47,726 bases of DNA from Escherichia phage HC6. This document shows, piece by piece, positions 1-47,726 of this stretch. The stretch lies in sequence record OL362274.1, one strand, 5' to 3'. The position numbers and the translations under genes are program-made. Positions within the stretch are counted from its first letter, which is position 1. Each line of letters starts with the position of its first letter. The notes beneath the pieces were generated by a model. The model worked only from the letters and a program-made list of their open reading frames with translations, was not told the origin of the DNA and searched no databases.

Positions 1-23
1 CGCCTTTAACCGAGGATTCAATA

Positions 24-15936: not shown

Positions 15937-16755
15937 ATGGCTGTCAGGTACGAAATAAACACAACTCCGGATGACGGGGAGGTTTTGCTTAGCGAAACCA
16001 TGTCAGCAGACTGGACTGCATTGCAGGTACAGATTGTGCCATTAAACTCTTCCGGCGGTTACGAGCCATTAACAAGCGGCTCTGTTTCCGTAATGGTATC
16101 TCCGTTCGCGTCTGGTGATTTCTGGATTGACGTCAACAATAATAATTATTATGGCGTGGCGCTGCGACTGAAAGTGATCAAGTCCCAAATGCCTGTTGGC
16201 ATTGCATCTCTGAAAGTCCTGGTATGGCGAGCTGCTACATCAGTGCCATCAAGTCAGGTTGTGGCGCAGTCCTACGCCGAACTTGCCAACAAGCAAGGTA
16301 AGTTATTCACCGCATCGCGTCGCGTGACTGGCGTTGCTGGCGGGGCTAACCTTGACAGCATTTTTATTACCGGTTCAAAGCAGGTCGTGTTTAATCAACG
16401 CATCATCGGATACACTGGCAAAGGTGTTGTAGCGTCAATCTACCGTGGGGCTGTGGTCACTGGAGGCACTGCCGCGGAGATTAATAATCCCAACGACATA
16501 ACGCCTCAGGCAGCTACGGCGCAGTTACTTACTGGTGCTACCGTGACAAACATTGGACAGCTGACGGTGGCAGCAACATACAGTGAGGGTAACGCATCGA
16601 ATCAGGGTCAGGGTAACTCGCAGGCGAAACTCGGCGAGCAGATTATCATGGCACCAAATACGACGTATTTGCTTCGCATAACATCACTGGACACTGCGGT
16701 GCAAAATATCAATGCATATGTGTCATGGTTTGAGGATGATACTTATCTGGCGTGA
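15937..16755 (+). CDS. putative virion structural protein
   Basis: 272 aa from ATG 15937; Gly/Thr/Val-rich beta-like composition; track start 15910 lies inside terminator. Confidence 0.45.
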   Translation: MAVRYEINTTPDDGEVLLSETMSADWTALQVQIVPLNSSGGYEPLTSGSVSVMVSPFASGDFWIDVNNNNYYGVALRLKVIKSQMPVGIASLKVLVWRAATSVPSSQVVAQSYAELANKQGKLFTASRRVTGVAGGANLDSIFITGSKQVVFNQRIIGYTGKGVVASIYRGAVVTGGTAAEINNPNDITPQAATAQLLTGATVTNIGQLTVAATYSEGNASNQGQGNSQAKLGEQIIMAPNTTYLLRITSLDTAVQNINAYVSWFEDDTYLA

Positions 16756-16761
16756 TAAAAC

Positions 16762-16784
16762 AAAGCCCCGTGAAGGGGCTTTGA
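16762..16784. terminator. bidirectional rho-independent terminator
   Basis: AAAGCCCC-gtgaa-GGGGCTTT between convergent genes. Confidence 0.6.
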
Positions 16785-16787
16785 TTG

Positions 16788-17327
16788 CTACAGACGCATA
16801 GGCATAACAACAATCTTCGCAGTCTCGCCAGATGGCGCACTAAGACAGCAAACTGCGGCATTTGTATTTCCATTCAGTTCAAATTTGACACAACAGAATT
16901 TAGGATTAAACAGCTTCGCCACTTTCTCAATATCAACAAGGTATCCAGCATTGAAGCCTATTTCCTCTGCTGCTTTCGTTTCCCTTGGTATAACGTGATC
17001 AATATCAGGGAATCGACCATCAATCTCTTCGCAGATACCAGCACCAACCATTGTGTCCATATGGCCGAAATGATAAGTAACGATTCCAGATTTTGTATCG
17101 ATGATCGCATGGTTATATTTCTTTTTCGGAGACTTGCTCACCTTTACAATCACACTTTCTGTCAGCTTATTGTCATGGCTGCCGCCAATAAATGCGCGAC
17201 GACCGTCAGTTGAGGCAATACGACCATCAGGCATGAAGCAGATGCCATTCAGGTAATACCGCACATCATTGCGAGCCTGAAATATTAATGCTGATTCAAG
17301 TAATAGTTTGCTTATTTTTAGTTTCAT
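16788..17327 (-). CDS. truncated DNA polymerase III beta sliding clamp (DnaN)-like protein
   Basis: 179 aa; DVRYYLNG, STDGRRA, DGRFPD, EIGFN and C-terminal VVMPMRL match E. coli DnaN domains II-III as I recall them; no domain I. Confidence 0.7.
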   Translation of the reverse strand: MKLKISKLLLESALIFQARNDVRYYLNGICFMPDGRIASTDGRRAFIGGSHDNKLTESVIVKVSKSPKKKYNHAIIDTKSGIVTYHFGHMDTMVGAGICEEIDGRFPDIDHVIPRETKAAEEIGFNAGYLVDIEKVAKLFNPKFCCVKFELNGNTNAAVCCLSAPSGETAKIVVMPMRL

Positions 17328-17500
17328 TTGATCACCTCAAATTTATATTTAGGCTCAGGCCATGTCGCGGTTCCGTCTTCCCATCGGACATATACTGGTT
17401 GAATTTTGTCCTCAATATCTACCTTCTCAACTACGCAAGGTAGCGGGTCATATTCTGGAATGATTATCTTATCTCCAACTTTTAAATCAGTTAATTCCAT
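17324..17500 (-). CDS. hypothetical small protein
   Basis: 58 aa (MELTDLKVGDKIIIPEYDPL...); ATGA overlaps at both ends; below track cutoff. Confidence 0.4.
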   Translation of the reverse strand: MELTDLKVGDKIIIPEYDPLPCVVEKVDIEDKIQPVYVRWEDGTATWPEPKYKFEVIK

Positions 17501-17673
17501 CACTTCACCTTAATCATGTGTTGTTTTGCAACCTTCAGGCATTCTTCAAAAATGCCGCCATTCTTAGCGCTCTGATTGCGCTTGTAATACTGAATTGCCA
17601 CATCAATTGCCATCTGGTCGATGTCAGGCAACTTGGTGCGAAGTTGTTTTTCAATGAATTGTTCTGGTGTCAT
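17500..17673 (-). CDS. hypothetical small protein
   Basis: 57 aa (MTPEQFIEKQLRTKLPDIDQ...); TAATG overlap with methyltransferase stop. Confidence 0.4.
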   Translation of the reverse strand: MTPEQFIEKQLRTKLPDIDQMAIDVAIQYYKRNQSAKNGGIFEECLKVAKQHMIKVK

Positions 17674-18473
17674 TAAACGGACCTCATGAATGCTTTAATG
17701 AATTCTTCTGCGACTTGTGGAACTATGGCATTACCATAACCGCGCAATCGTCCCACTCTTGCGGATACCCCATGAGTTGCCTCGCAAAATCCGCCTGGTA
17801 TGACTCTAGTTTCCTTATCTGCTCCATGGTTGGGTTTCCATGAATCCCATAAACATGAAGCCACATCTGGCGATAAAGAGTATCGTTCCTGAATTTCCCG
17901 TCCTTTCTGTAAAATGACTTGCTGAGATTCCCGTAATCCTTCCATCCTCGCGCCGTTGGTGTCGCCCATCCTCGCGCCAAAGATGATTCTTTTCCTTTCC
18001 TGTGGAGAGCCGACGCTGCAAGCTGGCAATACTGACGCCCCGCAGGCGTAGCCTTTGTCTTCCAGGTTAAGGAATACAAAATCGAGCCAGTGCTTCCCAA
18101 TTGCTGCTGCAACCTGCTCTCCAAACAGCAATTCAGGCTTGCACTCTCTGATGAGCCTGAGAAATGCTGGGGCAAGGTGTCGATCGTCGTCAAATCCGAG
18201 AGACTTACCGGCAACGCTAAACGGCTGGCAAGGTGGTGATCCTGTCCAGAGTCGAGTGCTTTCTGGTATTCCTGCCAGCTGGAGTGCAAGGGGCCACCCT
18301 CCGATTCCGGCAAAGAAGTGACACTGTGTAAATCCTTCCAGGTCTGAAGGGGTGACTTCGGTGATTGATCGTTCATCGACATATCCGTAAGGAATTAGTT
18401 TATTGTTAATTAATTCACGCAGCCATGCCGCTGCGCCCTTGTCCCACTCATTGTAATAGTGGACCATCATCAC
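17673..18473 (-). CDS. DNA (cytosine-5)-methyltransferase, compact
   Basis: 266 aa; FFAGIGG (motif I), PPCQPFS (motif IV), GEQV (motif VI), QERKR (motif VIII), GNAIV (motif X); little room for a target-recognition domain. Confidence 0.75.
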   Translation of the reverse strand: MMMVHYYNEWDKGAAAWLRELINNKLIPYGYVDERSITEVTPSDLEGFTQCHFFAGIGGWPLALQLAGIPESTRLWTGSPPCQPFSVAGKSLGFDDDRHLAPAFLRLIRECKPELLFGEQVAAAIGKHWLDFVFLNLEDKGYACGASVLPACSVGSPQERKRIIFGARMGDTNGARMEGLRESQQVILQKGREIQERYSLSPDVASCLWDSWKPNHGADKETRVIPGGFCEATHGVSARVGRLRGYGNAIVPQVAEEFIKAFMRSV

Positions 18474-19279
18474 ATCTTCTCCAGAATTGCCATCACCTCG
18501 TGAATATCAGCAACAGGAATCTTGATAAACTCCTCATTCTCTGCCACTACATGACCAGCAAGAAGAATAACGTGGTCAGCTGGCTTCAGTAACTCAATCA
18601 GTCGGTCTACTGGCTTAATCTTTTTCGACTTAAGCACCTTCGCCGTTACCTTATCCTTGCCTTGCGCCTTCGCTTCTTCGACTGCCTCGTCGATAACTTT
18701 AACCGCATCATCGCCATGTTCGCGAGTTACTGCTACGGCATTTGCATAGCTGATTTGCCCTGCACTGATTCGCGCTTTTACTTCGGCTGGCACATCACCC
18801 AGTGACAGGTGCATCTGCACGTCAGATACTGAACGGCCGACCTTTTTGGCGATTTCCTCATTGGTCCAGCCAAAGCCTTTCAGTCGCGTGTAAGCCTTTG
18901 CGCGCTCAAATGGGTCAAGCTGCTTACCCTGACTGGATGACACCATGAAGGCAATTTTATCGGCCTCATCGCCAGTGAAATCCTTACACTCAATACGAAC
19001 GATTGGTGCGCCGCGCTCAATGGCACGCAATGCGCCTAGATAGCGATGCTGACCATCAAGAATGCGGATTCCCTTCTCATCAGGAATAACTGTTAATGCT
19101 GGTAATGGCTGACCTGATTCCCAGCACTGCGCGAAATACTCCACATGCTGCTCGTCTGCTTCGCGGATGTTGTATCCCGGCTCCAGATAGATTTGCTCCA
19201 CTGGCACGAGATAGGTTTTGTTAACAGCGATTCCGTTGCGCGTTTCTTTGTCTGAATAGATTTTGCTAAGTGTTTTCAT
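18470..19279 (-). CDS. ParB-like nuclease domain protein
   Basis: 269 aa from ATG 19279; ILDGQHRY ParB/sulfiredoxin-type motif plus HTH-like EIAKKVGRSVSDV. Confidence 0.7.
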   Translation of the reverse strand: MKTLSKIYSDKETRNGIAVNKTYLVPVEQIYLEPGYNIREADEQHVEYFAQCWESGQPLPALTVIPDEKGIRILDGQHRYLGALRAIERGAPIVRIECKDFTGDEADKIAFMVSSSQGKQLDPFERAKAYTRLKGFGWTNEEIAKKVGRSVSDVQMHLSLGDVPAEVKARISAGQISYANAVAVTREHGDDAVKVIDEAVEEAKAQGKDKVTAKVLKSKKIKPVDRLIELLKPADHVILLAGHVVAENEEFIKIPVADIHEVMAILEKM

Positions 19280-19280
19280 A

Positions 19281-19472
19281 TCATTCACCACTTTCTTCCA
19301 ATAATTGCTCGTAATATGCGACGTACTCATTAGCAAGATGGTACAGGCGCTCAGCAGACTTGCGTTCTGCATTACTTAAGTCACCAATAGACTCAATGTT
19401 GCCAATTGCATCAACACAATCATTGAAGTCTTGCTCTGTATTACGAAATCGACAGTAGGACATGTTTGCCAT
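19281..19472 (-). CDS. hypothetical small protein
   Basis: 63 aa, acidic. Confidence 0.5.
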   Translation of the reverse strand: MANMSYCRFRNTEQDFNDCVDAIGNIESIGDLSNAERKSAERLYHLANEYVAYYEQLLEESGE

Positions 19473-19474
19473 GA

Positions 19475-20104
19475 TTAATCCTCATCACCAGAATTAGCAA
19501 TATCGTAAAACTGACCGTAGGTTATCTGCTTAAAGTTATCAGGTATCGTTACCTGTCCGTGACCTTCATCTTTTGTATTTGGCACAGCAAAAATCAAACA
19601 ATCATCCTTTTTCGGGTGTTTGCCTCCATAAGTAGAAAGCATTGCAAAACCAAATCCGCGACCAGATTGCTCACCAATGCCGGTACGTGCGATGCCATAA
19701 TGGTTAACAATGTAGTCCTTCCATTCTGGCAATAACTTTAATTTCTCGTTTGCCTCGCGCATCACTGCGTCCAGCTTTTTGTTGTATTCACGACCATCCT
19801 TTGTGTTTCCTTTCCCACGAACAATAACCACGCGCTGACCTTCCCAAAAATCTTCACGTTTTATTGTTACAGGGCATGGAAATTCAAATTTATTGCTCCA
19901 CGCAAAACTCTCAAGCAGGCCACCGCCAACAGCGCCCCAACTGCGCGTTGTGGTAAATGCGACAGCTCCAACCTTTTTCATTGCGTCACCGAGAATTTCA
20001 TTGCGGCGATTCTTGATGTCATCGTATGCGTCGATTAGTTTCTTAACATCATCACCTTCAACCATGTAATAATCATAATGTTTTGCGTTACTACTCATCT
20101 TCAT
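19475..20104 (-). CDS. hypothetical protein
   Basis: about 209 aa; first gene of minus-strand operon; start ATG 20104 or 20098 after GAGGTG; no motif recognised. Confidence 0.55.
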   Translation of the reverse strand: MKMSSNAKHYDYYMVEGDDVKKLIDAYDDIKNRRNEILGDAMKKVGAVAFTTTRSWGAVGGGLLESFAWSNKFEFPCPVTIKREDFWEGQRVVIVRGKGNTKDGREYNKKLDAVMREANEKLKLLPEWKDYIVNHYGIARTGIGEQSGRGFGFAMLSTYGGKHPKKDDCLIFAVPNTKDEGHGQVTIPDNFKQITYGQFYDIANSGDED

Positions 20105-20125
20105 CACCTCTAACATTTATTGTTG

Positions 20126-20185
20126 TTTCTACGTCACTAACTATAAACGCCACATCAATCTACGTCAACAGGAATATGCTAAAAT
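20126..20185. promoter_or_regulatory. divergent promoter region with paired TCTACGTCA motifs
   Basis: TTTCTACGTCAC and TCAATCTACGTCAACA followed by TAAAAT -10-like hexamer; between divergent genes 20104 and 20216. Confidence 0.45.
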
Positions 20186-22603: not shown

Positions 22604-22680
22604 TGGTGGACACGGACGGATTTGAACCTTCAATCAGCCGATTATTAGTCGGTTGCTTTAACCAATTAAGCTACGCGTCC
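22604..22680 (-). tRNA. tRNA, anticodon AAT (Ile-like) by hand fold
   Basis: 77 nt cloverleaf on minus strand: 7-bp acceptor stem, GCTT/AAGC D-stem, GGTTCAAATCC T-arm, encoded CCA; anticodon and isotype need tRNAscan-SE. Confidence 0.6.
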
Positions 22681-34426: not shown

Positions 34427-34918
34427 TCAGAAGGGAATGTCATCATCGAAGTCCATCGGAGTCTCATTGCCTCCTTGTTGGCTTTGTTGTTTTGGTTGCT
34501 GCTGTTGTTGTCGTTGCGGTTGTTGGCCTGATTGCTGGCGTGGTTGTTGTTGCCCTGCATCATCCCGCTTTCCACCAAGCATCTGCATAACACCGCCCAT
34601 CTGTGGAATTACAATCTCCGTTGTATATCGGTCAACTCCATTGCTGTCAGTCCACTTACGAGTGCGAAGTTGTCCTTCGATATAAACCTGCGAGCCTTTG
34701 CGAAGGTATTCTCCTGCAACTTCTGCAAGTTTTCCGAAGATGACCACGCGATGCCATTCAGTCTGCTCTTTCTTTTCTCCTGTCTGCTTATCTTTCCACT
34801 GCTCAGATGTTGCAACAGAAAGATTGGCAATTGCAGAGCCTGATGCTGAATATTTAACTTCAGGGTCGTTACCAACTCGACCAAGGATTATGCACTTATT
34901 AATACCAATCGAAGACAT
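34427..34918 (-). CDS. ssb: single-stranded DNA-binding protein
   Basis: 163 aa; OB-fold-like N-terminus, Gln/Gly-rich linker, canonical acidic tail DFDDDIPF. Confidence 0.95.
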
Positions 34919-35436
34919 TACTTGAATCTCCCGTTTTTATCTCTTAATCTGCCATTATGATTCTCTGTGGCGTGTAATGATGCGTGCTCTGACTTCGTCA
35001 TAAGCATTAGGTTACTTGGATGGTTGTTTGTTTTATCATGGTCTATATGATGAACGCATTCATTGTGAAACAACCTCCTCCCAATAATGCCTTCCATAAC
35101 TACGACATGTTCTCCTCTTCCTTTGTTTTCACCCATAGTTATCTCGACATAACCATTCGGTTTTACAGAGCGACCCTTGCCAACTCCTTTCTTTGATTTT
35201 GATATATTTTGCTTCCATTCTTCAGTAAACTTTCGTTTTTTACCCCTAAGTCCTGAACCAAGTCTTCCCTCTGCGGCAGCAATTCTTATTGCATCTCCTC
35301 TGCTTCTCAATATTCCGGCTTTCTTAAATCTAAACCTCAATGTTGACATGGCTATTCCTGTTTCATTGGAGATTTGAGGGATGCTCATGCCAGACAAATA
35401 CATATCAAACTCATTCATATGCACCTCCTTGTGCAA
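34918..35436 (-). CDS. HNH endonuclease
   Basis: [30 protein letters not shown] motif; N-terminal HTH-like region; start 35436 or 35418. Confidence 0.8.
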
Positions 35437-35498: not shown

Positions 35499-36545
35499 TT
35501 AAAATCCTTCAATTGGAGTTGGTTTATGTTCTTGTTTTTCTTCCTGCGGTTCTGGCTGCTGTGGTTGCGGTTTAGCCAGTTTGGCAGGGTTGAAATTATC
35601 CTGAGGAGTGATTACCACAGGGGGTAATTGCTCATCATTGATAAAAGACTCAATGCGATCATATTCAGCAGCAGAAGCAGCGAGAGAAGGCCATATTGCA
35701 CGAATCTTATCTTTCAGGTTATCAGGTATTGATTTCGCCTCTTCCTTCAGTCCTTCCATTCCTTTTGCTGCTGAAAGCTGAAGTCGTGAGCGCCATGATT
35801 CAAACTCTTCGTCAACTTTAACACCAGAGTCCACCCATTTGATGAGTCCTCGACCATGAGCCTCTCCAATATAGCCATGACGAACGCTTTCACGACCAGA
35901 CTCAAAGAAGATGGGGCGTAGCTCTTCTGGTAATTTGGTGAACTCCTGAATTTTTCCTCCATCGTGCATCATCATGCTCACGGTCATCTCGAACATGAAA
36001 TCTTTCTCGCACACTGGCTGTAACCCAAGTGATACAGGTTCCTTCGGGTTTGCGAAGTCAGTTTTCTGGCGAGCGCGAAGACAGACAATGATATGCATAT
36101 TGCTTTGTAGCATGGCATTCATGAACTTCTTGTGTTCAGCTTTGGCGCGCTTCCAGTCAGCCATCTTTTTACCGTTAAGCAGCGGCTTTTCAGCAATCTC
36201 CGTGCAACTGCCTTCACCTTCCCATTCATGCGAACCTGAATCAATAACAAGAACCTTAACGCCGGCAGCCTGAAACTCTTCAATGGCCTGACGGTAACGG
36301 GCCGGGCTGAATGGAGCATACATATCAGCGTGCAGGAATTTGCCATCAAGGATGTTTGAGTACAGGCGACCGCGACCATTTTCAGTATCAAGGAATCCGA
36401 TTTCTTCTGGTGAGTCAACCATCCCGCGAGCCAGCTTAAGTGCGCTGTATGTTTTTCCGCTACCAGACTGGCCTGAAATACCGATGACTACACGAGAACC
36501 TGAACGCTCTGCTGGTTTAATATTGAGAATACCCATTTTCATCAC
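35499..36545 (-). CDS. Sak4-like RecA-fold ATPase
   Basis: Walker A GQSGSGKT near N-terminus; about 346 aa; next to SSB and exonuclease. Confidence 0.65.
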   Translation of the reverse strand: MMKMGILNIKPAERSGSRVVIGISGQSGSGKTYSALKLARGMVDSPEEIGFLDTENGRGRLYSNILDGKFLHADMYAPFSPARYRQAIEEFQAAGVKVLVIDSGSHEWEGEGSCTEIAEKPLLNGKKMADWKRAKAEHKKFMNAMLQSNMHIIVCLRARQKTDFANPKEPVSLGLQPVCEKDFMFEMTVSMMMHDGGKIQEFTKLPEELRPIFFESGRESVRHGYIGEAHGRGLIKWVDSGVKVDEEFESWRSRLQLSAAKGMEGLKEEAKSIPDNLKDKIRAIWPSLAASAAEYDRIESFINDEQLPPVVITPQDNFNPAKLAKPQPQQPEPQEEKQEHKPTPIEGF

Positions 36546-36553
36546 CTCACTAA

Positions 36554-37498
36554 TTATAAATTAAACTGTTTTTTGAACCATTCAGGCGTTTCCATTTCTA
36601 TGACAGGATTACCCATTGAATAACCGGGCCACGAATTGGCTTTTTTGCACGCCTTGTAAATTTCCATAGCGCCATGCAACTGAATTCGACCGATGCGTAA
36701 TTGCTCTTCAGTCAAGCGAATTAACGCAGGAATAAATGGTGCTTTCTTTTCCTGAACGAGAAGATTAACAGAGCGTGGCGCATGACCATATGCCGCAACA
36801 AACATGTCGTGCTGCATCGCCATTTTCATAAAGTACCCAAGTCTCGCAGCATGACGGAAAAACTCTTCTGGCTTGGCGCTCACCGCTGTTTTGTAGTCGA
36901 TGATGTCGCCACCTTTGGTAAGGCAGTCAAAGCGAACTTTTGCCTTCTCTCCGTTAAGTTCACCTAGAATTGACACTTCAGCATAAGCACCAGCGAGAAG
37001 ACTGCTGTAATAGCTGTTTGCGTGGATTACAGCACGCATTTGCTGAATAGCGTCATAATCACCACCTTCCAGCATTTGCTTTCCTACAGCAGCTTTTTCA
37101 GCCTCTTCACGGATGACATCGTAAATTTTCACTGGCTCGCCAGTCGCCTGGATGATTTTGATCACCTCAGCTTTCGACTTTCCTGAAAGTCCTTTGATGC
37201 CTCGTTCTTTTGCCCATGAGTTCATATCACTTACAGTAACAAGCAGGTCATCACCAAAATCTTCTTTGGTTGGCATTCGTGCATATTCAGCATCAAAACG
37301 CTCTGGTTCAAGCAACGCAGTATGGCTACCTGTACCGAATATAAGAGCTTTTGATTGCTCATCCTCTTCGTCTTTGTATCGCCATGCTGCCGGGCATCTG
37401 TCAAGTATATTCCATAATCCAGAACCATTAATGTGCTCTGTGTCAGCATGATAATCCTGATTGCTTAATTCATTGTTGAAATAAACTCTCATCATCAC
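36554..37498 (-). CDS. PD-(D/E)xK family exonuclease
   Basis: 314 aa; D...IIDYKT resembles PD-(D/E)xK core; context with Sak4-like and SSB. Confidence 0.6.
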   Translation of the reverse strand: MMMRVYFNNELSNQDYHADTEHINGSGLWNILDRCPAAWRYKDEEDEQSKALIFGTGSHTALLEPERFDAEYARMPTKEDFGDDLLVTVSDMNSWAKERGIKGLSGKSKAEVIKIIQATGEPVKIYDVIREEAEKAAVGKQMLEGGDYDAIQQMRAVIHANSYYSSLLAGAYAEVSILGELNGEKAKVRFDCLTKGGDIIDYKTAVSAKPEEFFRHAARLGYFMKMAMQHDMFVAAYGHAPRSVNLLVQEKKAPFIPALIRLTEEQLRIGRIQLHGAMEIYKACKKANSWPGYSMGNPVIEMETPEWFKKQFNL

Positions 37499-38166: not shown

Positions 38167-38592
38167 TTAATCTACGTCATCCAGCAAGCCAAAATAGAAA
38201 AGCGTGGCTTTTTTTAATTCATCAAGCCCATAAGCTATGGCAGCATAATGACCAAGCCTGCACATCTCTGTTAGCACTGCTGATTGATCCTTGCTCACCC
38301 TGCTTTTGCTTTTATCGCGGCGCTTTGCTTCAATCATCCCACAACTGTGATTTACCCCCGGAGTCATTATCACATTGTCGCCTATACCAGCCTTAACCCC
38401 CATCTTCTGGCGCTTCAGCACAAACTGCACCCTGCTTGATGTGCCAGTTTCGTTGGGTACATGAAACCACAGAACATCAGGGAAGCGGTGTTGCATCCAT
38501 GTTCCGTAACCCATCTGGTCAGTCTCCTCTTTAGGACACTCACCACGATAACCGCTATCAAATACCCATATGCCGCTATCAAGCTGCTTCAC
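38167..38592 (-). CDS. VRR-NUC domain nuclease
   Basis: 141 aa; GIGDNVIMTPG...IEAKRR...SKDQ fits VRR-NUC pattern as recalled. Confidence 0.6.
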   Translation of the reverse strand: MKQLDSGIWVFDSGYRGECPKEETDQMGYGTWMQHRFPDVLWFHVPNETGTSSRVQFVLKRQKMGVKAGIGDNVIMTPGVNHSCGMIEAKRRDKSKSRVSKDQSAVLTEMCRLGHYAAIAYGLDELKKATLFYFGLLDDVD

Positions 38593-40507
38593 TTTGTTCT
38601 CCTTTAAATTCTTTGCGGTGGATTATGTCTCTGCCTTTATCATTAATTCGATGCGTTATGCGTTTTGGCGCTTTAATTAATCCCGCATACATCATGAATT
38701 GCTTGGCGTTCTGGCATTTCAGTATTTTCCCAGCCATTGACTTATCATCAAGGTGAGGAAAAACCGCCTTTGCCTTGAACATGTTTTTCATGTGAGTTGC
38801 GCCGCCATAAGGGTAGAAAACTTCATTAGCCCAGCCTTCTTTGCCATCACAACGGTTAATCCAGTAGCGATATAAAATCCCCTCTCCGTCCTTCGTTAGT
38901 TGAACCTTGAAATCCATAACATCAGCCCACTCGTTATCTGTATAAGCACGCTCATTCAGTGCCGAATTAGGGTCGCGCAACACGTGATCGCAATGTCTGC
39001 AATAGCGCGCAGTGGGGTCGTTTTTAGTGCCGCAACCATCATCAAAAATCCGGATTCCGTGCTTATCAAAACCGCAACGGATGTAACTGAAAAATTCTTC
39101 GCAGCGACCATCTGGAGATAGCGGGTCTTTCCCTATGCATCGACGCGCATATGGGCTGTTCATTGTTCCACATGTATGACACGGAACTTGTTCGCCACTG
39201 CGTTTTGAACGTTGCGCTTCAGCCTCTTCCAGAATCGGGTCTTCATACAGCTGACCAAGCTCAAACATCGTGCCAGAGAAATCAAGAACCAGATGGTCTT
39301 CTTTATGATACCCGGCATCAATTTGCTCTTTCTTCAGTAGGCGCATTCCGCGACCAAGAAGCTGGACAAGGAGAGTTAGCGACATTATTTTTCGCAATAT
39401 GCAGCTCGTATCCCATAACGGTATATTTACGCCAGTGGTAAGGGCGGCTATCTGGAATGTGAATTTTTTACGCCCGGTGTATGCATCTTTTAGAGCATTC
39501 CTTCTGGCTTTTGACCCCATATCTTCTGTAACTATTGAATAACTTCCTTCGGGTAGGTATTTTGCCGCCTCCTGACAATGTTTTTTACCAGCACATGTAA
39601 TCAGTACGCCGTTTCTGTTTTTAGTCAACTCCATAACCTTGAGCATGATTTTCTGCGTCAACGTACCTTGCTCAAGAATTTCTTTCTGCATCTGCTTGAG
39701 CTGCTCGGCGGTAAAGTCCTGAGTACCATCAACATCTGAACCATGAAAATCCGAAAGGTCATAATGCAGACTATCAACATCATGAAGACCAAAAATTGTT
39801 GGAACAAGAAAACCGTTTTCAACCATGTACTTGGTGTCTATGTTGATAATCTCTTTCTTCCAGAAAGCGCCTTTTATTGATGTAGTTCCGCGAAACGGTG
39901 AGCCTGTATAACCTATTATTCTCAACTCATGGCCATGCTTATCTTTACACCTTTTCATTAGCTCATTAATTATCACTGCATACTGCGTATCACCATTATT
40001 AACAACATCAATGTCATTAACCATATGATTTTCATCGATCAGCAGGAATCTTGGGCAAAAGTCAGAGAGCGCACCTTTTGCAATAACATTCCCATGCTCA
40101 TCTTTTTTATCAAACAAAGCATTTACAACAGTACCCTCAGAACCACAGATTATTGGGTACGTAGAACTTTTCCTACCCAACGAAGCACTGAATAGCGAGT
40201 TTCTAACACCAAGCAACCATAGCTCTTCCGCATCTTGCTCCACTATTTCGCCCTGTCTTGATAAAATCATCCCTGAATAGCCCATCTCCTGAAAACGCTT
40301 TGCTATCATGGCAATCATCAGTGACTTTCCGCTACCGACACTTGCTGTTACATAGCTTGGGCCAACATAATGACGAATCACATCGCCAGTTAACTTATAT
40401 ATCAACCACTGATAGGGTCTTGGCTCGATATCACCAGTATCCAGATAAGATTTCAGCAGATTAATATCAATCTCTGAAATCATTTTGTCGATTTTATGCA
40501 TTACCAA
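38579..40507 (-). CDS. SF2 DNA helicase with C-terminal zinc-ribbon extension
   Basis: Walker A SVGSGKS, motif II LIDENH, motif III TGSP; C-terminal about 200 aa with several Cys pairs. Confidence 0.8.
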   Translation of the reverse strand: MVMHKIDKMISEIDINLLKSYLDTGDIEPRPYQWLIYKLTGDVIRHYVGPSYVTASVGSGKSLMIAMIAKRFQEMGYSGMILSRQGEIVEQDAEELWLLGVRNSLFSASLGRKSSTYPIICGSEGTVVNALFDKKDEHGNVIAKGALSDFCPRFLLIDENHMVNDIDVVNNGDTQYAVIINELMKRCKDKHGHELRIIGYTGSPFRGTTSIKGAFWKKEIINIDTKYMVENGFLVPTIFGLHDVDSLHYDLSDFHGSDVDGTQDFTAEQLKQMQKEILEQGTLTQKIMLKVMELTKNRNGVLITCAGKKHCQEAAKYLPEGSYSIVTEDMGSKARRNALKDAYTGRKKFTFQIAALTTGVNIPLWDTSCILRKIMSLTLLVQLLGRGMRLLKKEQIDAGYHKEDHLVLDFSGTMFELGQLYEDPILEEAEAQRSKRSGEQVPCHTCGTMNSPYARRCIGKDPLSPDGRCEEFFSYIRCGFDKHGIRIFDDGCGTKNDPTARYCRHCDHVLRDPNSALNERAYTDNEWADVMDFKVQLTKDGEGILYRYWINRCDGKEGWANEVFYPYGGATHMKNMFKAKAVFPHLDDKSMAGKILKCQNAKQFMMYAGLIKAPKRITHRINDKGRDIIHRKEFKGEQSEAA

Positions 40508-40764
40508 ATCCTCGCACCAAGACGTTCAATTGTTTGTTTCTTTGTTTCATCATCTATTCCGCTATAAAAATACATATAACTAAGATTCCATAGATAATCT
40601 TCTGGTCGCTCATCGGCAAACAAATCATCCCACTCAAAAATCCATTCTCCAGTTCTCTGTCTTCTGTATATGGTTAGCCATGTATTGCTTCGTGGCGGGT
40701 ATCCGAAGGCAACAGGGATTGGCTTGCCATGAAAAATCCTCTTAAAAATGCTATCAAGGAACAC
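40501..40764 (-). CDS. hypothetical protein
   Basis: 87 aa, Trp/Tyr-rich. Confidence 0.5.
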   Translation of the reverse strand: MFLDSIFKRIFHGKPIPVAFGYPPRSNTWLTIYRRQRTGEWIFEWDDLFADERPEDYLWNLSYMYFYSGIDDETKKQTIERLGARIW

Positions 40765-40786
40765 TGCTATATCCTTTTATTGATGT

Positions 40787-40824
40787 TTCTACGTCAGTTA
40801 GCTTATACTCAATCTACACCAACA
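40787..40824. promoter_or_regulatory. divergent promoter region with paired TCTACRYCA motifs
   Basis: TTTCTACGTCAG and TCAATCTACACCAACA between divergent genes 40764 and 40840. Confidence 0.4.
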
Positions 40825-40839
40825 ATCAAGGGTAAATTT

Positions 40840-41793
40840 ATGAGATACGACTGGAAAGACATTGAGCCAAAAATGATCGGAAATTGGCAAGCTGCCATCA
40901 TGTCTATCGTCAATGTGGATAGCAGAGTTTTCAATGGCAAGCACCAGCCATGCCCGTCATGCTCAGGAAAAGACAGGTATCGCTTTGATGACAACTTCGA
41001 AACAAAAGGCGATGGCGGCGCAATCTGCAATCAGTGCGGTTCCGGCAGCGGCATGAATTGGCTGATGAAACTCTCCGGAATGAGCTTTCCTGAAGCGCTG
41101 GAGGCACTTGGTGGATTCCTGAATATGCACCCGCGTGAAAAGCTGGAGGCAATCAGGAAAGAGCTACCGAAGATAAATCACAGCGATGACTTCATCACCG
41201 AGCAGGAAGTCGCAGCAATCATGGCTAAAACGACTCGTGTCGCGATGAATGAGTGGACTTTGATAAATGGTATTGGTTGCGACGTTAACGTCACCAGAGG
41301 CAAATCTGGAGAACTTATTGCGGTTGAGATGATGCGAGCTGACACAATGAAACTGTGCAACGTGGCATTCATTGGCATGGATGGTGATTCAATCAGAACG
41401 TTTTTCCGCGCAGGATACAACAAGGACTCAGCCATCAACGGCAAACTCACGCGCGGCGCGATAAGCCCAATCGGAGAAGACAACGGGAAGTTCATTTACC
41501 TGGTATCTGATTATGCCGATGCGTGGAAATGCCACTACTTCACTGGCGCTCATGCCTGGTGCTGCTGGTCGCCGGAAAACATGTGGGAGGTTGTGCGCTC
41601 GGTTAGCGATGAAACGAAGGCGAGATTGCGCTGCATAGTTAATTATAAATTCGACGAACTTTGCGCTGCGGAAAATGCAGGGCTTCCGGTGATGCTTCCT
41701 GATGATGCTGAAACAATAAGGATGGCAAAGAGAATCAGGAGAAAGATTTATGACGCTGGCGAGCTGATAGAGAAAATGCCAGTAAGCAGATAA
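40840..41793 (+). CDS. DNA primase (zinc-binding plus Toprim-like)
   Basis: 317 aa from ATG 40840; CPSCSGKDRYRFDD...CNQCGSGSG zinc-binding motif typical of phage primases. Confidence 0.65.
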   Translation: MRYDWKDIEPKMIGNWQAAIMSIVNVDSRVFNGKHQPCPSCSGKDRYRFDDNFETKGDGGAICNQCGSGSGMNWLMKLSGMSFPEALEALGGFLNMHPREKLEAIRKELPKINHSDDFITEQEVAAIMAKTTRVAMNEWTLINGIGCDVNVTRGKSGELIAVEMMRADTMKLCNVAFIGMDGDSIRTFFRAGYNKDSAINGKLTRGAISPIGEDNGKFIYLVSDYADAWKCHYFTGAHAWCCWSPENMWEVVRSVSDETKARLRCIVNYKFDELCAAENAGLPVMLPDDAETIRMAKRIRRKIYDAGELIEKMPVSR

Positions 41794-42394: not shown

Positions 42395-42586
42395 TCACTT
42401 AATCATCAATTTTGAAATGTCAACATAACCAACAGAAAATCTGCGCCAGTAATCATCAAGTACGTGGTAATTAGATCGAATCCATACTTTGTTAATCCCA
42501 GACCAGAAAAACCACGTCGAATAACCATACGGTCTGAAATTCCATGAGCCTTCTGAGCGGCAAAGTTCGCCTGATATTGTTATCAT
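42395..42586 (-). CDS. hypothetical small protein
   Basis: 63 aa track ORF. Confidence 0.4.
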   Translation of the reverse strand: MITISGELCRSEGSWNFRPYGYSTWFFWSGINKVWIRSNYHVLDDYWRRFSVGYVDISKLMIK

Positions 42587-44139
42587 TTCAACCTCGGATT
42601 TATGTGAACAGTGTTTCCGATAAATACGCAGTAACCATCCTCTTCAAGTGATGGCAATACACTTGATCTGAGTCGGTCATAAATTTTAGGTATCCCTTTG
42701 AATGGTCGCACGTTTTTAAGTGAATCATAAAGCCACTTCACCGTTACGCTATTTTTCCCTTTCTGAGCGGCGGAGCGTAGTTTTTCGGCAACAACATCAA
42801 ACTCAGATCGTTCACCAGCATACCCATTTGATTCAACAGCATCAGTGAACGTTTTTGTCAGTGCGTCATAAACACTGATGGCGCGACTAATTTCATTTTC
42901 ACCGATAATCTTTGAACGCTTTCCTCCATCGCACCAGTTTTCAGCAGCGTGAAATATTGCTGCCAGACGTATTATTTGCTTATCAGCTTTACCCATCGCG
43001 CCACGAAGAAGAACGTGGTCCCACTTACCGCCGGGAAGGAAGTTTTTCTCCCACTGATTTCGTAACAGGCCGATCATTCTTGCTGAGTCATTGTGAAGCG
43101 TCAGTTTTGTTTTTTCTGCTGACACAACATTATGTATAAATCTTGCATATTCCGACCTCAAGCTGTCTGGCATTGGCTTGCTTACAGGGCAATCATTAAC
43201 CATGTCCCAGTGTTCGCGATAGCCAAGCATTGATTGCTCTCGCAACATCAGGAAACGTTCAGAAAGACCGTTCCCCCTGTCGCCAGCGGCAAGAATGGCA
43301 TCAATACTTTCATCCTGCGCAATCACACTTATGTTTCCAAGCACGTAACCAGATGAAACGCCACGACCAACACGAGCAGAGCCAATGAATCCGCCATCCC
43401 ATCCCTTCAGGATTACTTCGGCGTTTGCCTTTCCACCTTCTTTTCCGTAAGAAAGGCCAAGGCATGTGTTAAGAACGCTTGCCTCGTCACTTATCAGATT
43501 AAAAAAACCACCTTCATGAATGGCCTGATGCTGAACAGCCTCCGGAGTTGCGTCCGTCAGTGGATATGTGATCGTATAAAGCTCCTCCAGCTTCTCCTTT
43601 TCGCGAGCAATATCATCTCCGATTAGTGCCTTTGCATTCTGATTACTGGCCTCTTTGTATGCCTTCATCAGTTCTTCGATGCGAAGATTTATTTTTATGA
43701 TTTGCTTTTCCATCTTTTTAGAAAGGTTGTCATATTCAATCTTCACCGGATTCATGTGCATTGAGTTGATGGCTGTTTTCCCTGCTGATGGAGGCTGAGA
43801 AGTCACCACGTAAAGAGAGACTGGAAGTTCTGAATGGTAATACTCAACGCTAAAGTTTCTCGTCATTGCGCTGGCAACGCACCCAAGTAAATGCATGAAC
43901 GATGTATTTATTGGGAACTGAACTGCGCGAGCTGCAGCGATTGCATAACGAGACAGCAAATCAGTCCGGTGCTCACTGGTCAGTTCTGTTTCTGAGTACG
44001 TTACATCGCGCTCCTTTCCTTCCTTGATGTCAAGCCACATGTTAGAACTTGGTGTCATGCCATGATGGAAGGCAACGCGAGCCGGAGATACTTTTAACTC
44101 CCTTGCTTCGTTGAAGATGTCTTGCGCTGTGATCATCAT
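42583..44139 (-). CDS. putative replication-associated ATPase (DUF3987-like)
   Basis: 518 aa; P-loop-like SQPPSAGKT and DEAS-like LISDEAS; beside candidate origin. Confidence 0.45.
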   Translation of the reverse strand: MMITAQDIFNEARELKVSPARVAFHHGMTPSSNMWLDIKEGKERDVTYSETELTSEHRTDLLSRYAIAAARAVQFPINTSFMHLLGCVASAMTRNFSVEYYHSELPVSLYVVTSQPPSAGKTAINSMHMNPVKIEYDNLSKKMEKQIIKINLRIEELMKAYKEASNQNAKALIGDDIAREKEKLEELYTITYPLTDATPEAVQHQAIHEGGFFNLISDEASVLNTCLGLSYGKEGGKANAEVILKGWDGGFIGSARVGRGVSSGYVLGNISVIAQDESIDAILAAGDRGNGLSERFLMLREQSMLGYREHWDMVNDCPVSKPMPDSLRSEYARFIHNVVSAEKTKLTLHNDSARMIGLLRNQWEKNFLPGGKWDHVLLRGAMGKADKQIIRLAAIFHAAENWCDGGKRSKIIGENEISRAISVYDALTKTFTDAVESNGYAGERSEFDVVAEKLRSAAQKGKNSVTVKWLYDSLKNVRPFKGIPKIYDRLRSSVLPSLEEDGYCVFIGNTVHINPRLK

Positions 44140-47663: not shown

Positions 47664-47713
47664 AATGCGGCAAAGGGTAGCTCCCTGCCCGGATTGGTCT
47701 CCGGGCTGCCGCA
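47664..47713 (+). other. nested hairpin structure at window edge
   Basis: TGCGGCA ... TGCCGCA outer stem enclosing AGGG-tagct-CCCT and CCCGGA-ttggtc-TCCGGG; may be cut by window end. Confidence 0.3.
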
Positions 47714-47726
47714 TCCATCCAGTGAC

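Follow-up and report, generated by a model that had tools for sequence, protein, structure and literature searches.

Escherichia phage HC6 encodes a 179-residue relative of the bacterial beta sliding clamp (DnaN), hereafter the mini-clamp, which appears from its sequence to hold every element that builds the partner-binding pocket of the clamp and to omit most of the remaining protein. We lean toward the view that it acts as a ring-less pocket module, which would bind the clamp-binding motifs of host proteins off DNA. The window referred to below is the whole stretch of HC6 DNA that was analysed (OL362274.1; 47,726 nt).

The mini-clamp gene and its operon

The mini-clamp is encoded by the last of seven co-directional genes that make up an early-type minus-strand operon, upstream of which lies a putative promoter. 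The features of the region are the following:

16788..17327, minus strand: mini-clamp coding sequence, 179 codons (ATG 17327-17325, TAG 16790-16788)
17333..17338, minus strand: Shine-Dalgarno sequence GAGGTG, 5 nt 5' of the mini-clamp ATG, read directly from the sequence
16761..16783, minus strand: intrinsic-terminator-like hairpin of 9 bp (6 GC) with a T-run, immediately 3' of the mini-clamp stop
17324..20116, minus strand: co-directional upstream genes of the operon
17673-18473, minus strand: C5 cytosine methyltransferase gene of the operon
18470-19372, minus strand: ParB-like HTH protein gene of the operon
20140..20168, minus strand: best sigma-70-like promoter of the region (TTGACG-17-TATAGT, 10/12), a consensus match only

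The other members of the operon, also on the minus strand, encode proteins of 213 aa (phrog_2260), 63 aa, 57 aa (phrog_4439) and 59 aa. The ATG of the mini-clamp overlaps the stop of the preceding 59-aa ORF (ATGA, as read from the sequence), an arrangement that suggests translational coupling. The hairpin closes the operon, which converges on the plus-strand capsid operon. The same region is found in close relatives: Escherichia phage 6947 (ON637251.1, 47,726 bp) differs from the window by 6 mismatches and a 23-nt rotation (window 1-23 versus 47704-47726), and phage HC8A (PQ280049.1, 47,750 bp) is identical to the window over 16000-18600. The sole tRNA gene of the window (tRNA-Ile, anticodon AAT, 22604-22680, minus strand) lies between the head-tail connector and the tail genes.

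Homology to the beta clamp

A phmmer search against PDB sequences matched the mini-clamp to E. coli beta (1mmi) with E=4.6e-9. The alignment pairs mini-clamp residues 7-154 with beta 136-288, and a second alignment pairs residues 119-179 with beta 313-366. When a profile built from 99 family members was used instead, the E-values ranged from 5e-26 to 7.6e-26 and the 42 significant matches were all beta clamps (42/42). The likeness to DnaN is far above chance, and the initial annotation was right to describe the protein as a half-length homologue: its 179 residues represent 49% of the 366 of E. coli beta, and 53 of the 167 aligned positions are identical (32%). The strings from which that relationship had been proposed are all present and in the same order as in the clamp, namely DVRYYLNG (residues 21-28), ASTDGRRA (38-45), DGRFPD (103-108), EIGFN (122-126) and VVMPMRL (173-179).

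The mini-clamp is nevertheless a relative of DnaN that lies outside the DnaN equivalog family, since it departs from that family, whose members have three tandem clamp-fold domains and about 360-390 aa, in domain number, model cutoffs and interface, and agrees with it in fold and pocket only. The dnaN equivalog model TIGR00663 gave 31.2 bits against a cutoff of 137.65, and the only Pfam model matched was PF02768 (DNA_pol3_beta_3), with 15.5 bits against a cutoff of 27.

Architecture and predicted fold

Residues 1-118 correspond to domain II of beta (segment scores of 85 for II-1 and 51 for II-2, and at most 24 against the other half-domains), and residues 118-179 to the C-terminal half of domain III, which scores 69 where the N-terminal half scores 25. 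This third motif starts directly after the interdomain connector, DGRFPD..V.P. Segment and profile comparisons with beta revealed no counterpart of domain I, and by sequence there is none of the N-terminal half of domain III (beta ~254-311). The domain assignment first proposed, domain II plus the end of domain III without domain I, is therefore the one that phmmer, the segment scores and the profile all return.

The structure of the mini-clamp alone, predicted with AlphaFold2 from an alignment of the same 99 family members, is a confident clamp fold (pLDDT 96.2, pTM 0.90). The model has beta-alpha-beta-beta-beta repeats that can be superposed on known clamps, as in the DNA clamp fold superfamily. 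Only two long helices are left in it (7-16 and 127-140); residues 64-72 are modeled as a loop where domain II of beta has its second helix, and one helix of the DNA-channel lining of the clamp is thus predicted to be replaced by a loop. The best 50 Foldseek matches in the PDB are all beta clamps, with alignments of about 260 columns that span an internal gap of about 80 residues, and among PDB structures Foldseek found no solved chain of about 180 residues closer to the model than the full clamps.

The dimer interface of beta is made up of I78 and F106 in domain I, which pack with I272 and L273, and of K74, R96, R103 and R105, which pair with E298-E304 (PMC11139829). The former member of each pair (I78/F106/K74/R96/R103/R105) falls in domain I, which the mini-clamp lacks. 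The latter (I272/L273 and E298-E304) falls in the N-terminal half of domain III, without a sequence counterpart in the mini-clamp, and in the colinear profile alignment the acidic cluster E298-E304 sits opposite APSGETAK. Since domain I and the interface residues are missing, the mini-clamp is predicted to be unable to close the canonical head-to-tail ring, which agrees with the loss of the ring-dimer surface supposed at the outset.

The partner-binding pocket

The clamp-binding motifs (Q-phi-x-L-(x)-F) of polymerases, the clamp-loader subunit delta, Hda, MutS/MutL and other proteins dock in a pocket of beta. Subsite I of this pocket comprises R152, L155, T172, G174, H175, R176, L177, P242, R246, V247, V360 and M362, and subsite II comprises H175, N320, Y323, V344, M362, P363, M364 and R365 (PMC11139829). 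All 18 residues map to parts of beta that the mini-clamp retains, and 14 of the 18 are identical to those of E. coli beta. The segments that carry them are:

17244..17267, minus strand: codons 21-28, DVRYYLNG, equivalent to E. coli beta 150-157; pocket residues R152 and L155
17193..17210, minus strand: codons 40-45, TDGRRA, equivalent to beta 172-177 (TDGHRL); subsite I and the bridging His175, here Arg
16992..17021, minus strand: codons 103-112, DGRFPDIDHV, equivalent to beta 238-247 (DGRFPDYRRV); interdomain connector with pocket residues P242, R246 and V247
16941..16961, minus strand: codons 123-129, IGFNAGY, equivalent to beta 317-323; subsite II residues N320 and Y323
16791..16811, minus strand: codons 173-179, VVMPMRL, identical to the E. 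coli beta C-terminus 360-366; pocket residues V360, M362, P363, M364 and R365

The four differences are H175->R, L177->A, R246->H and a non-conserved V344. Because of the first three of these, the specificity of the mini-clamp pocket may be altered.

Conservation was evaluated on an alignment of 129 family members, down to about 30% identity. Positions D21, R23, Y25, L26 and G28 are at least 93% conserved, T40 and G42 reach 91% and 99%, the consensus at position 43 is His (91%), P107 is invariant, and N126 and Y129 reach 78% and 92%. In beta numbering, the pocket values are 97% for R152, 93% for L155, 91% for T172, 99% for G174, 91% for H175, 100% for P242, 92% for Y323, 96% for M362, 91% for P363 and 87% for R365. 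Conservation is 85% or higher at D21, R23, Y25, L26, G28, T40, G42, H/R43, I60, G104, P107, Y129, M175, P176 and R178, and the conserved positions map to beta D150, R152, Y154, L155, G157, T172, G174, H175, G239, P242, Y323, M362, P363 and R365. Pocket residues take up ten of the 15 positions with the highest conservation (Fisher p=1.5e-8), and the commonest residue has an average frequency of 0.73 at the pocket versus 0.36 elsewhere (Mann-Whitney p=7e-7). Conservation centres on the pocket and on no interface-like edge. These figures point to strong selection on the pocket residues throughout the family, and the initial suggestion that the partner-binding cleft was kept fits the family's most conserved feature. 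Nevertheless, the same residues are also the best conserved in genuine clamps, and their retention could partly be a structural or homology-sampling effect. The argument from the pocket thus rests on its retention by a lineage in which the ring function is gone and identity has otherwise fallen to about 30%.

Distribution and annotation of the family

The best PHROG match of the mini-clamp is PHROG 3007 (E=4.5e-58, residues 1-179), whose features it shares: a length of 170-215 aa and the signature DvRYYLNG...TdGH...P...Y...MPxR. In tblastn searches the mini-clamp was found in 237 deposited phage genomes, with 233 of the matches covering at least 80% of it; many of the carriers are coliphages, and the hosts include Salmonella, Escherichia, Klebsiella, Shigella, Vibrio, Proteus, Burkholderia and others. 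An exhaustive search of 1.84 billion cluster representatives gave 1,192 matches at E<=1e-3 and 119 at E<=1e-10. Since the best 150 representatives are almost all 170-215 aa long, the short form is a discrete and old family. When grouped at 50% identity it forms more than 100 clusters, carried by siphoviruses, myoviruses and podoviruses that infect many hosts, and BFVD models of its members (163-210 aa) reach TM values of 0.65-0.90 to the mini-clamp model. One 1004-aa representative (P0267, E=6e-10, 10 stretches) was discarded as spurious, its WD40-type repeat SVCFSPDGRYALSGS mimicking ICFMPDGRIASTDG. No match to an anti-phage defence system was found for the mini-clamp (0 PADLOC-DB families at E<=1).

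The labels of these genes vary among records: 'DNA polymerase III beta subunit' (as in Escherichia phage 6947, ON637251.1), 'beta clamp domain protein', 'DNA polymerase', 'hypothetical protein' or 'RusA-like Holliday junction resolvase'. The gp15 of Burkholderia phage Bcep781, 31% identical over 98% of the length, is noted as 'DNA Pol III b subunit fragment'. With 237 phage records and the 'fragment' label of gp15, the existence of a short beta-like phage gene is old annotation knowledge. The statement of the initial annotation that no such mini-clamp had been described must accordingly be divided: the gene has been recorded as Pol III beta or as a fragment in deposited phages, and a full-text search, outside which much of the subscription literature lies, turned up no paper on the function or structure of short phage clamps. 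The gene family was already recognized in annotation; what seems new here is the pocket-only architecture and the mode of action that it would imply.

The RusA label of PHROG 3007 is an annotation error, and the protein is a beta-clamp derivative. A resolvase identity was considered and rejected, as the mini-clamp has no RusA similarity in sequence (Pfam) or in fold (Foldseek). This label has spread to many RefSeq and Pharokka-style annotations (NC_054651, NC_054636, NC_054649 and NC_054654 among others).

Genomic context in HC6 and other carriers

The replication and recombination genes of HC6 lie apart from the mini-clamp operon:

34427-34918, minus strand: SSB
34918-35436, minus strand: HNH endonuclease
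35499-36545, minus strand: Sak4-like AAA_24 ATPase
36554-37498, minus strand: PD-(D/E)XK exonuclease
38579-40507, minus strand: SNF2-type helicase with zinc ribbons
40729-41793, plus strand: primase (DnaG-type)
42583-44139, minus strand: DUF3987 helicase

No gene for a DNA polymerase or a clamp loader was found in the whole 47,726-nt window, so HC6 presumably replicates with the host Pol III and the host beta. The idea that mini-clamps are confined to polymerase-less phages, in which they would be Pol III adaptors, was discarded, since the carriers EP23 and Bcep781 encode family-A polymerases. No canonical clamp-binding motif is present in the Pol A of either phage.

The HC6 proteome contains two strings of the form Q-phi-x-[LM]-(x)-[FL], both internal, where 3.9 would be expected by chance, and this low count suggests that the pocket is more likely to receive a host ligand than a phage one. 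The string QMHLSL of the ParB-like protein (18470-19372) fits the hexameric clamp-binding pattern. It is probably a coincidence, given its location inside the predicted HTH region and the proteome count below expectation. Among the replication proteins of EP23 and Bcep781 that were checked, the only such match is the pentameric QLALL near the N-terminus of the Bcep781 helicase gp52 (residues 23-27; locus L009, 21958-24579), which might be a ligand of the Bcep781 mini-clamp.

Nine carriers were surveyed for gene placement. In six of the nine, all distantly related (EP23, Bcep781, Escherichia phage 26, Shewanella 1/41, Proteus Isfahan and Morganella Henu15), the gene is found inside a head or tail cluster, in antisense orientation, and stands alone in five of the six. 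Its positions in the loci of these antisense carriers are:

L002: 3998-4510
L003: 3998-4579
L004: 3962-4483
L005: 4004-4552
L006: 3998-4495
L011: 3498-3998

There the gene resembles an autonomous cassette of the moron type, which would carry transcription signals of its own. In the other three (HC6, Erwinia Gungnir39 and Vibrio 1.246.O) it belongs to an early or replication-type operon near a DNA methyltransferase gene. The methyltransferase (window 17673-18473; L012 4078-5193; L010 1695-2243) is of the C5 type in HC6 and Erwinia Gungnir39 and of the N6-adenine type in Vibrio 1.246.O; this proximity, within a few genes, could be meaningful or could reflect a mere shared placement among early genes. 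No partner gene is conserved beside the mini-clamp across the surveyed carriers. A placement as movable and autonomous as this would suit accessory genes for host interaction better than core subunits of the replisome.

A proposed ring-less pocket module

The features above can be assembled into a mechanism. The retained domain II, the single beta-alpha-beta-beta-beta motif of domain III and the interdomain connector would together build the hydrophobic pocket. The discarding of domain I, with its half of the dimer interface and one channel-lining helix, would prevent a normal head-to-tail dimer around DNA. Produced from the early-type operon, the mini-clamp would bind the clamp-binding motif of at least one host protein, off DNA, and this protein would then be either withheld from the host clamp (a decoy) or tethered to a phage process (an adaptor). 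Peptide binding, the identity of the ligand, the monomeric state and the effect on the host are what we infer for the mini-clamp.

The decoy idea of the initial annotation is compatible with a ring-less pocket module by analogy with a monomeric variant of beta, which binds the clamp-loader subunit delta about 50-fold more tightly than dimeric beta does (PMC11139829). Nevertheless, HC6 appears to need the host Pol III and beta, and an indiscriminate decoy would therefore be self-defeating, so that either selectivity or an adaptor role must be assumed. Selectivity could be directed at partners that depend solely on the motif, such as Hda, the translesion polymerases or MutS/MutL. An adaptor could bring a host factor to the phage helicase-primase.

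A more ambitious reading, which is possible but which we hold with some doubt, is that mini-clamps are widespread and unrecognized takeover factors that mimic the docking site of a hub and selectively strip or redirect proteins with clamp-binding motifs, by which the phage would monopolize or rewire the host replisome. The candidate targets would be the clamp-loader subunit delta, Hda, MutS/MutL and the translesion polymerases; in polymerase-less phages such as HC6, the mini-clamp might instead tether Pol III to the phage helicase-primase.

Alternative explanations

Some of the same observations could be accommodated by a protein that acts on DNA as a replication accessory, either as a homo-oligomeric ring or arc formed through its exposed sheet edges or as a monomeric or dimeric non-ring tether of the herpesvirus UL42/UL44 kind that holds a polymerase (the host Pol III here, a phage Pol A elsewhere) through the pocket. 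Four protomers of 1.5 domains would give the 12 motifs of a clamp, and the family has a pI shifted to neutral or basic values (8.7 for the mini-clamp, a median of 8.0 for the family and 5.25 for E. coli beta). The support from the pI is weak. The shift is modest, and the basic character of the Lys-rich loop KVSKSPKKK (codons 62-70, window 17117-17143), which occupies the place of the second, channel-lining helix of beta domain II, is not conserved in the family consensus. The lack of a clamp loader and a polymerase in HC6, the loss of the known interface residues and of one DNA-channel helix, the lack of a canonical clamp-binding motif in the Pol A of EP23 and Bcep781, and the antisense location of the gene in a structural rather than a replication module in six of nine carriers all make this explanation unlikely. 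The interface also bears on the poison or hijack subunit imagined by the initial annotation, which would pair with host beta at the ring interface and form dead-end heterodimers. A clamp homologue is expressed in a beta-filled cell, and heteromeric poisoning is a known general strategy, which speaks for the idea by inference only. Yet both halves of the beta dimer interface are missing and the family conserves its pocket, not an interface-like edge, so this reading is disfavored and appears highly improbable.

The pocket could also have been re-purposed for a phage-encoded or non-canonical ligand and a role that has nothing to do with host replication proteins, for instance linking DNA to late transcription, to packaging or to some other late event. 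Time and again the gene sits within the head or tail clusters of unrelated phages, and clamps are known to activate late transcription in phages, T4 gp45 and, in phage Mu with MuC, the host beta reportedly serving in this way. The H175R, L177A and R246H substitutions and the QLALL of gp52 would also fit such a change of ligand. Nevertheless, a gene that is antisense to the structural genes does not share their transcript, no conserved partner gene adjoins it across carriers, and the clamp-binding-like strings of the HC6 proteome are neither enriched nor terminal. Moreover, both subsites keep their canonical residues family-wide, which argues for canonical motifs as ligands, and re-purposing seems quite improbable. 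That the gene is a decaying remnant of a captured dnaN, or a RusA-like resolvase, has in its favor the word 'fragment' in the Bcep781 annotation and the PHROG 3007 label, matched with a very low E-value and used in many RefSeq records. The Pfam scan, the family search with its conservation and the AlphaFold2 model effectively exclude both.

Comparison with known systems

The ring-less pocket module that we favor can be placed among known clamps and clamp-directed proteins. Relative to E. coli DnaN (1mmi/2pol), the mini-clamp is without domain I, the N-terminal half of domain III and the dimer-interface residues, and a channel helix has become a loop. With Bcep781 gp15 and the other PHROG 3007 or short 'Pol III beta' phage proteins it shares family and architecture; the HC6 protein is the member found in E. 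coli and Jersey-like phages and does not differ from them in kind, but its gene ends an early-type operon, and in other carriers the gene often stands alone and antisense amid the structural genes. Full-length phage DnaN proteins (phrog_947; Ralstonia phage Heva, Caulobacter phage Sansa) are also phage-borne beta homologues, with a weak profile match (E=6.3e-8) and a fold match to the mini-clamp. Unlike it, they are three-domain proteins of 337-461 aa that presumably assemble into rings, and their TM to the mini-clamp model is 0.45-0.55 (query-normalised).

The engineered monomeric beta (I272A/L273A; 1jqj/1jql) resembles the mini-clamp in that its ring cannot close and its pocket is open, and by analogy it may be regarded as a functional precedent for a ring-less pocket module as a high-affinity competitor. 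It is, however, a laboratory mutant with all three domains, while the mini-clamp is natural and much smaller. The herpesvirus factors UL42 (HSV-1), UL44 (HCMV), PF-8 (KSHV) and BMRF1 (EBV) consist of two complete domains, bind DNA through a strongly basic face and each work with a polymerase encoded by the virus itself, of which HC6 has none; the likeness of the mini-clamp to them is far weaker than to beta. Gp168 of Twort-like phages (PDB 7evp) is small and unrelated and binds to the clamp of the host, whereas the mini-clamp imitates the docking site of the clamp. Neither small anti-clamp binders nor factors of the UL42/UL44 type match its case.

Significance

The beta clamp is the hub through which the traffic of bacterial replication and repair passes, and antibiotics are directed at it: griselimycins and peptide mimetics bind its pocket. 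The mini-clamp family forms part of the core genome in a common group of phages that infect E. coli, Salmonella and Klebsiella and are used in therapy collections. The annotation of the family is inconsistent and partly wrong, and its correction should be broadly useful. If the mini-clamp proves to be a mere odd processivity factor, the significance of the finding would be more modest and taxonomic. If the favored reading is true, a minimal scaffold would be at hand for the study and screening of pocket ligands, as well as a probe for the clamp partners that are important in infection. In that case, a stable, natural, pocket-only module of 179 residues would give phages a novel kind of weapon against the clamp hub, or of handle on it.
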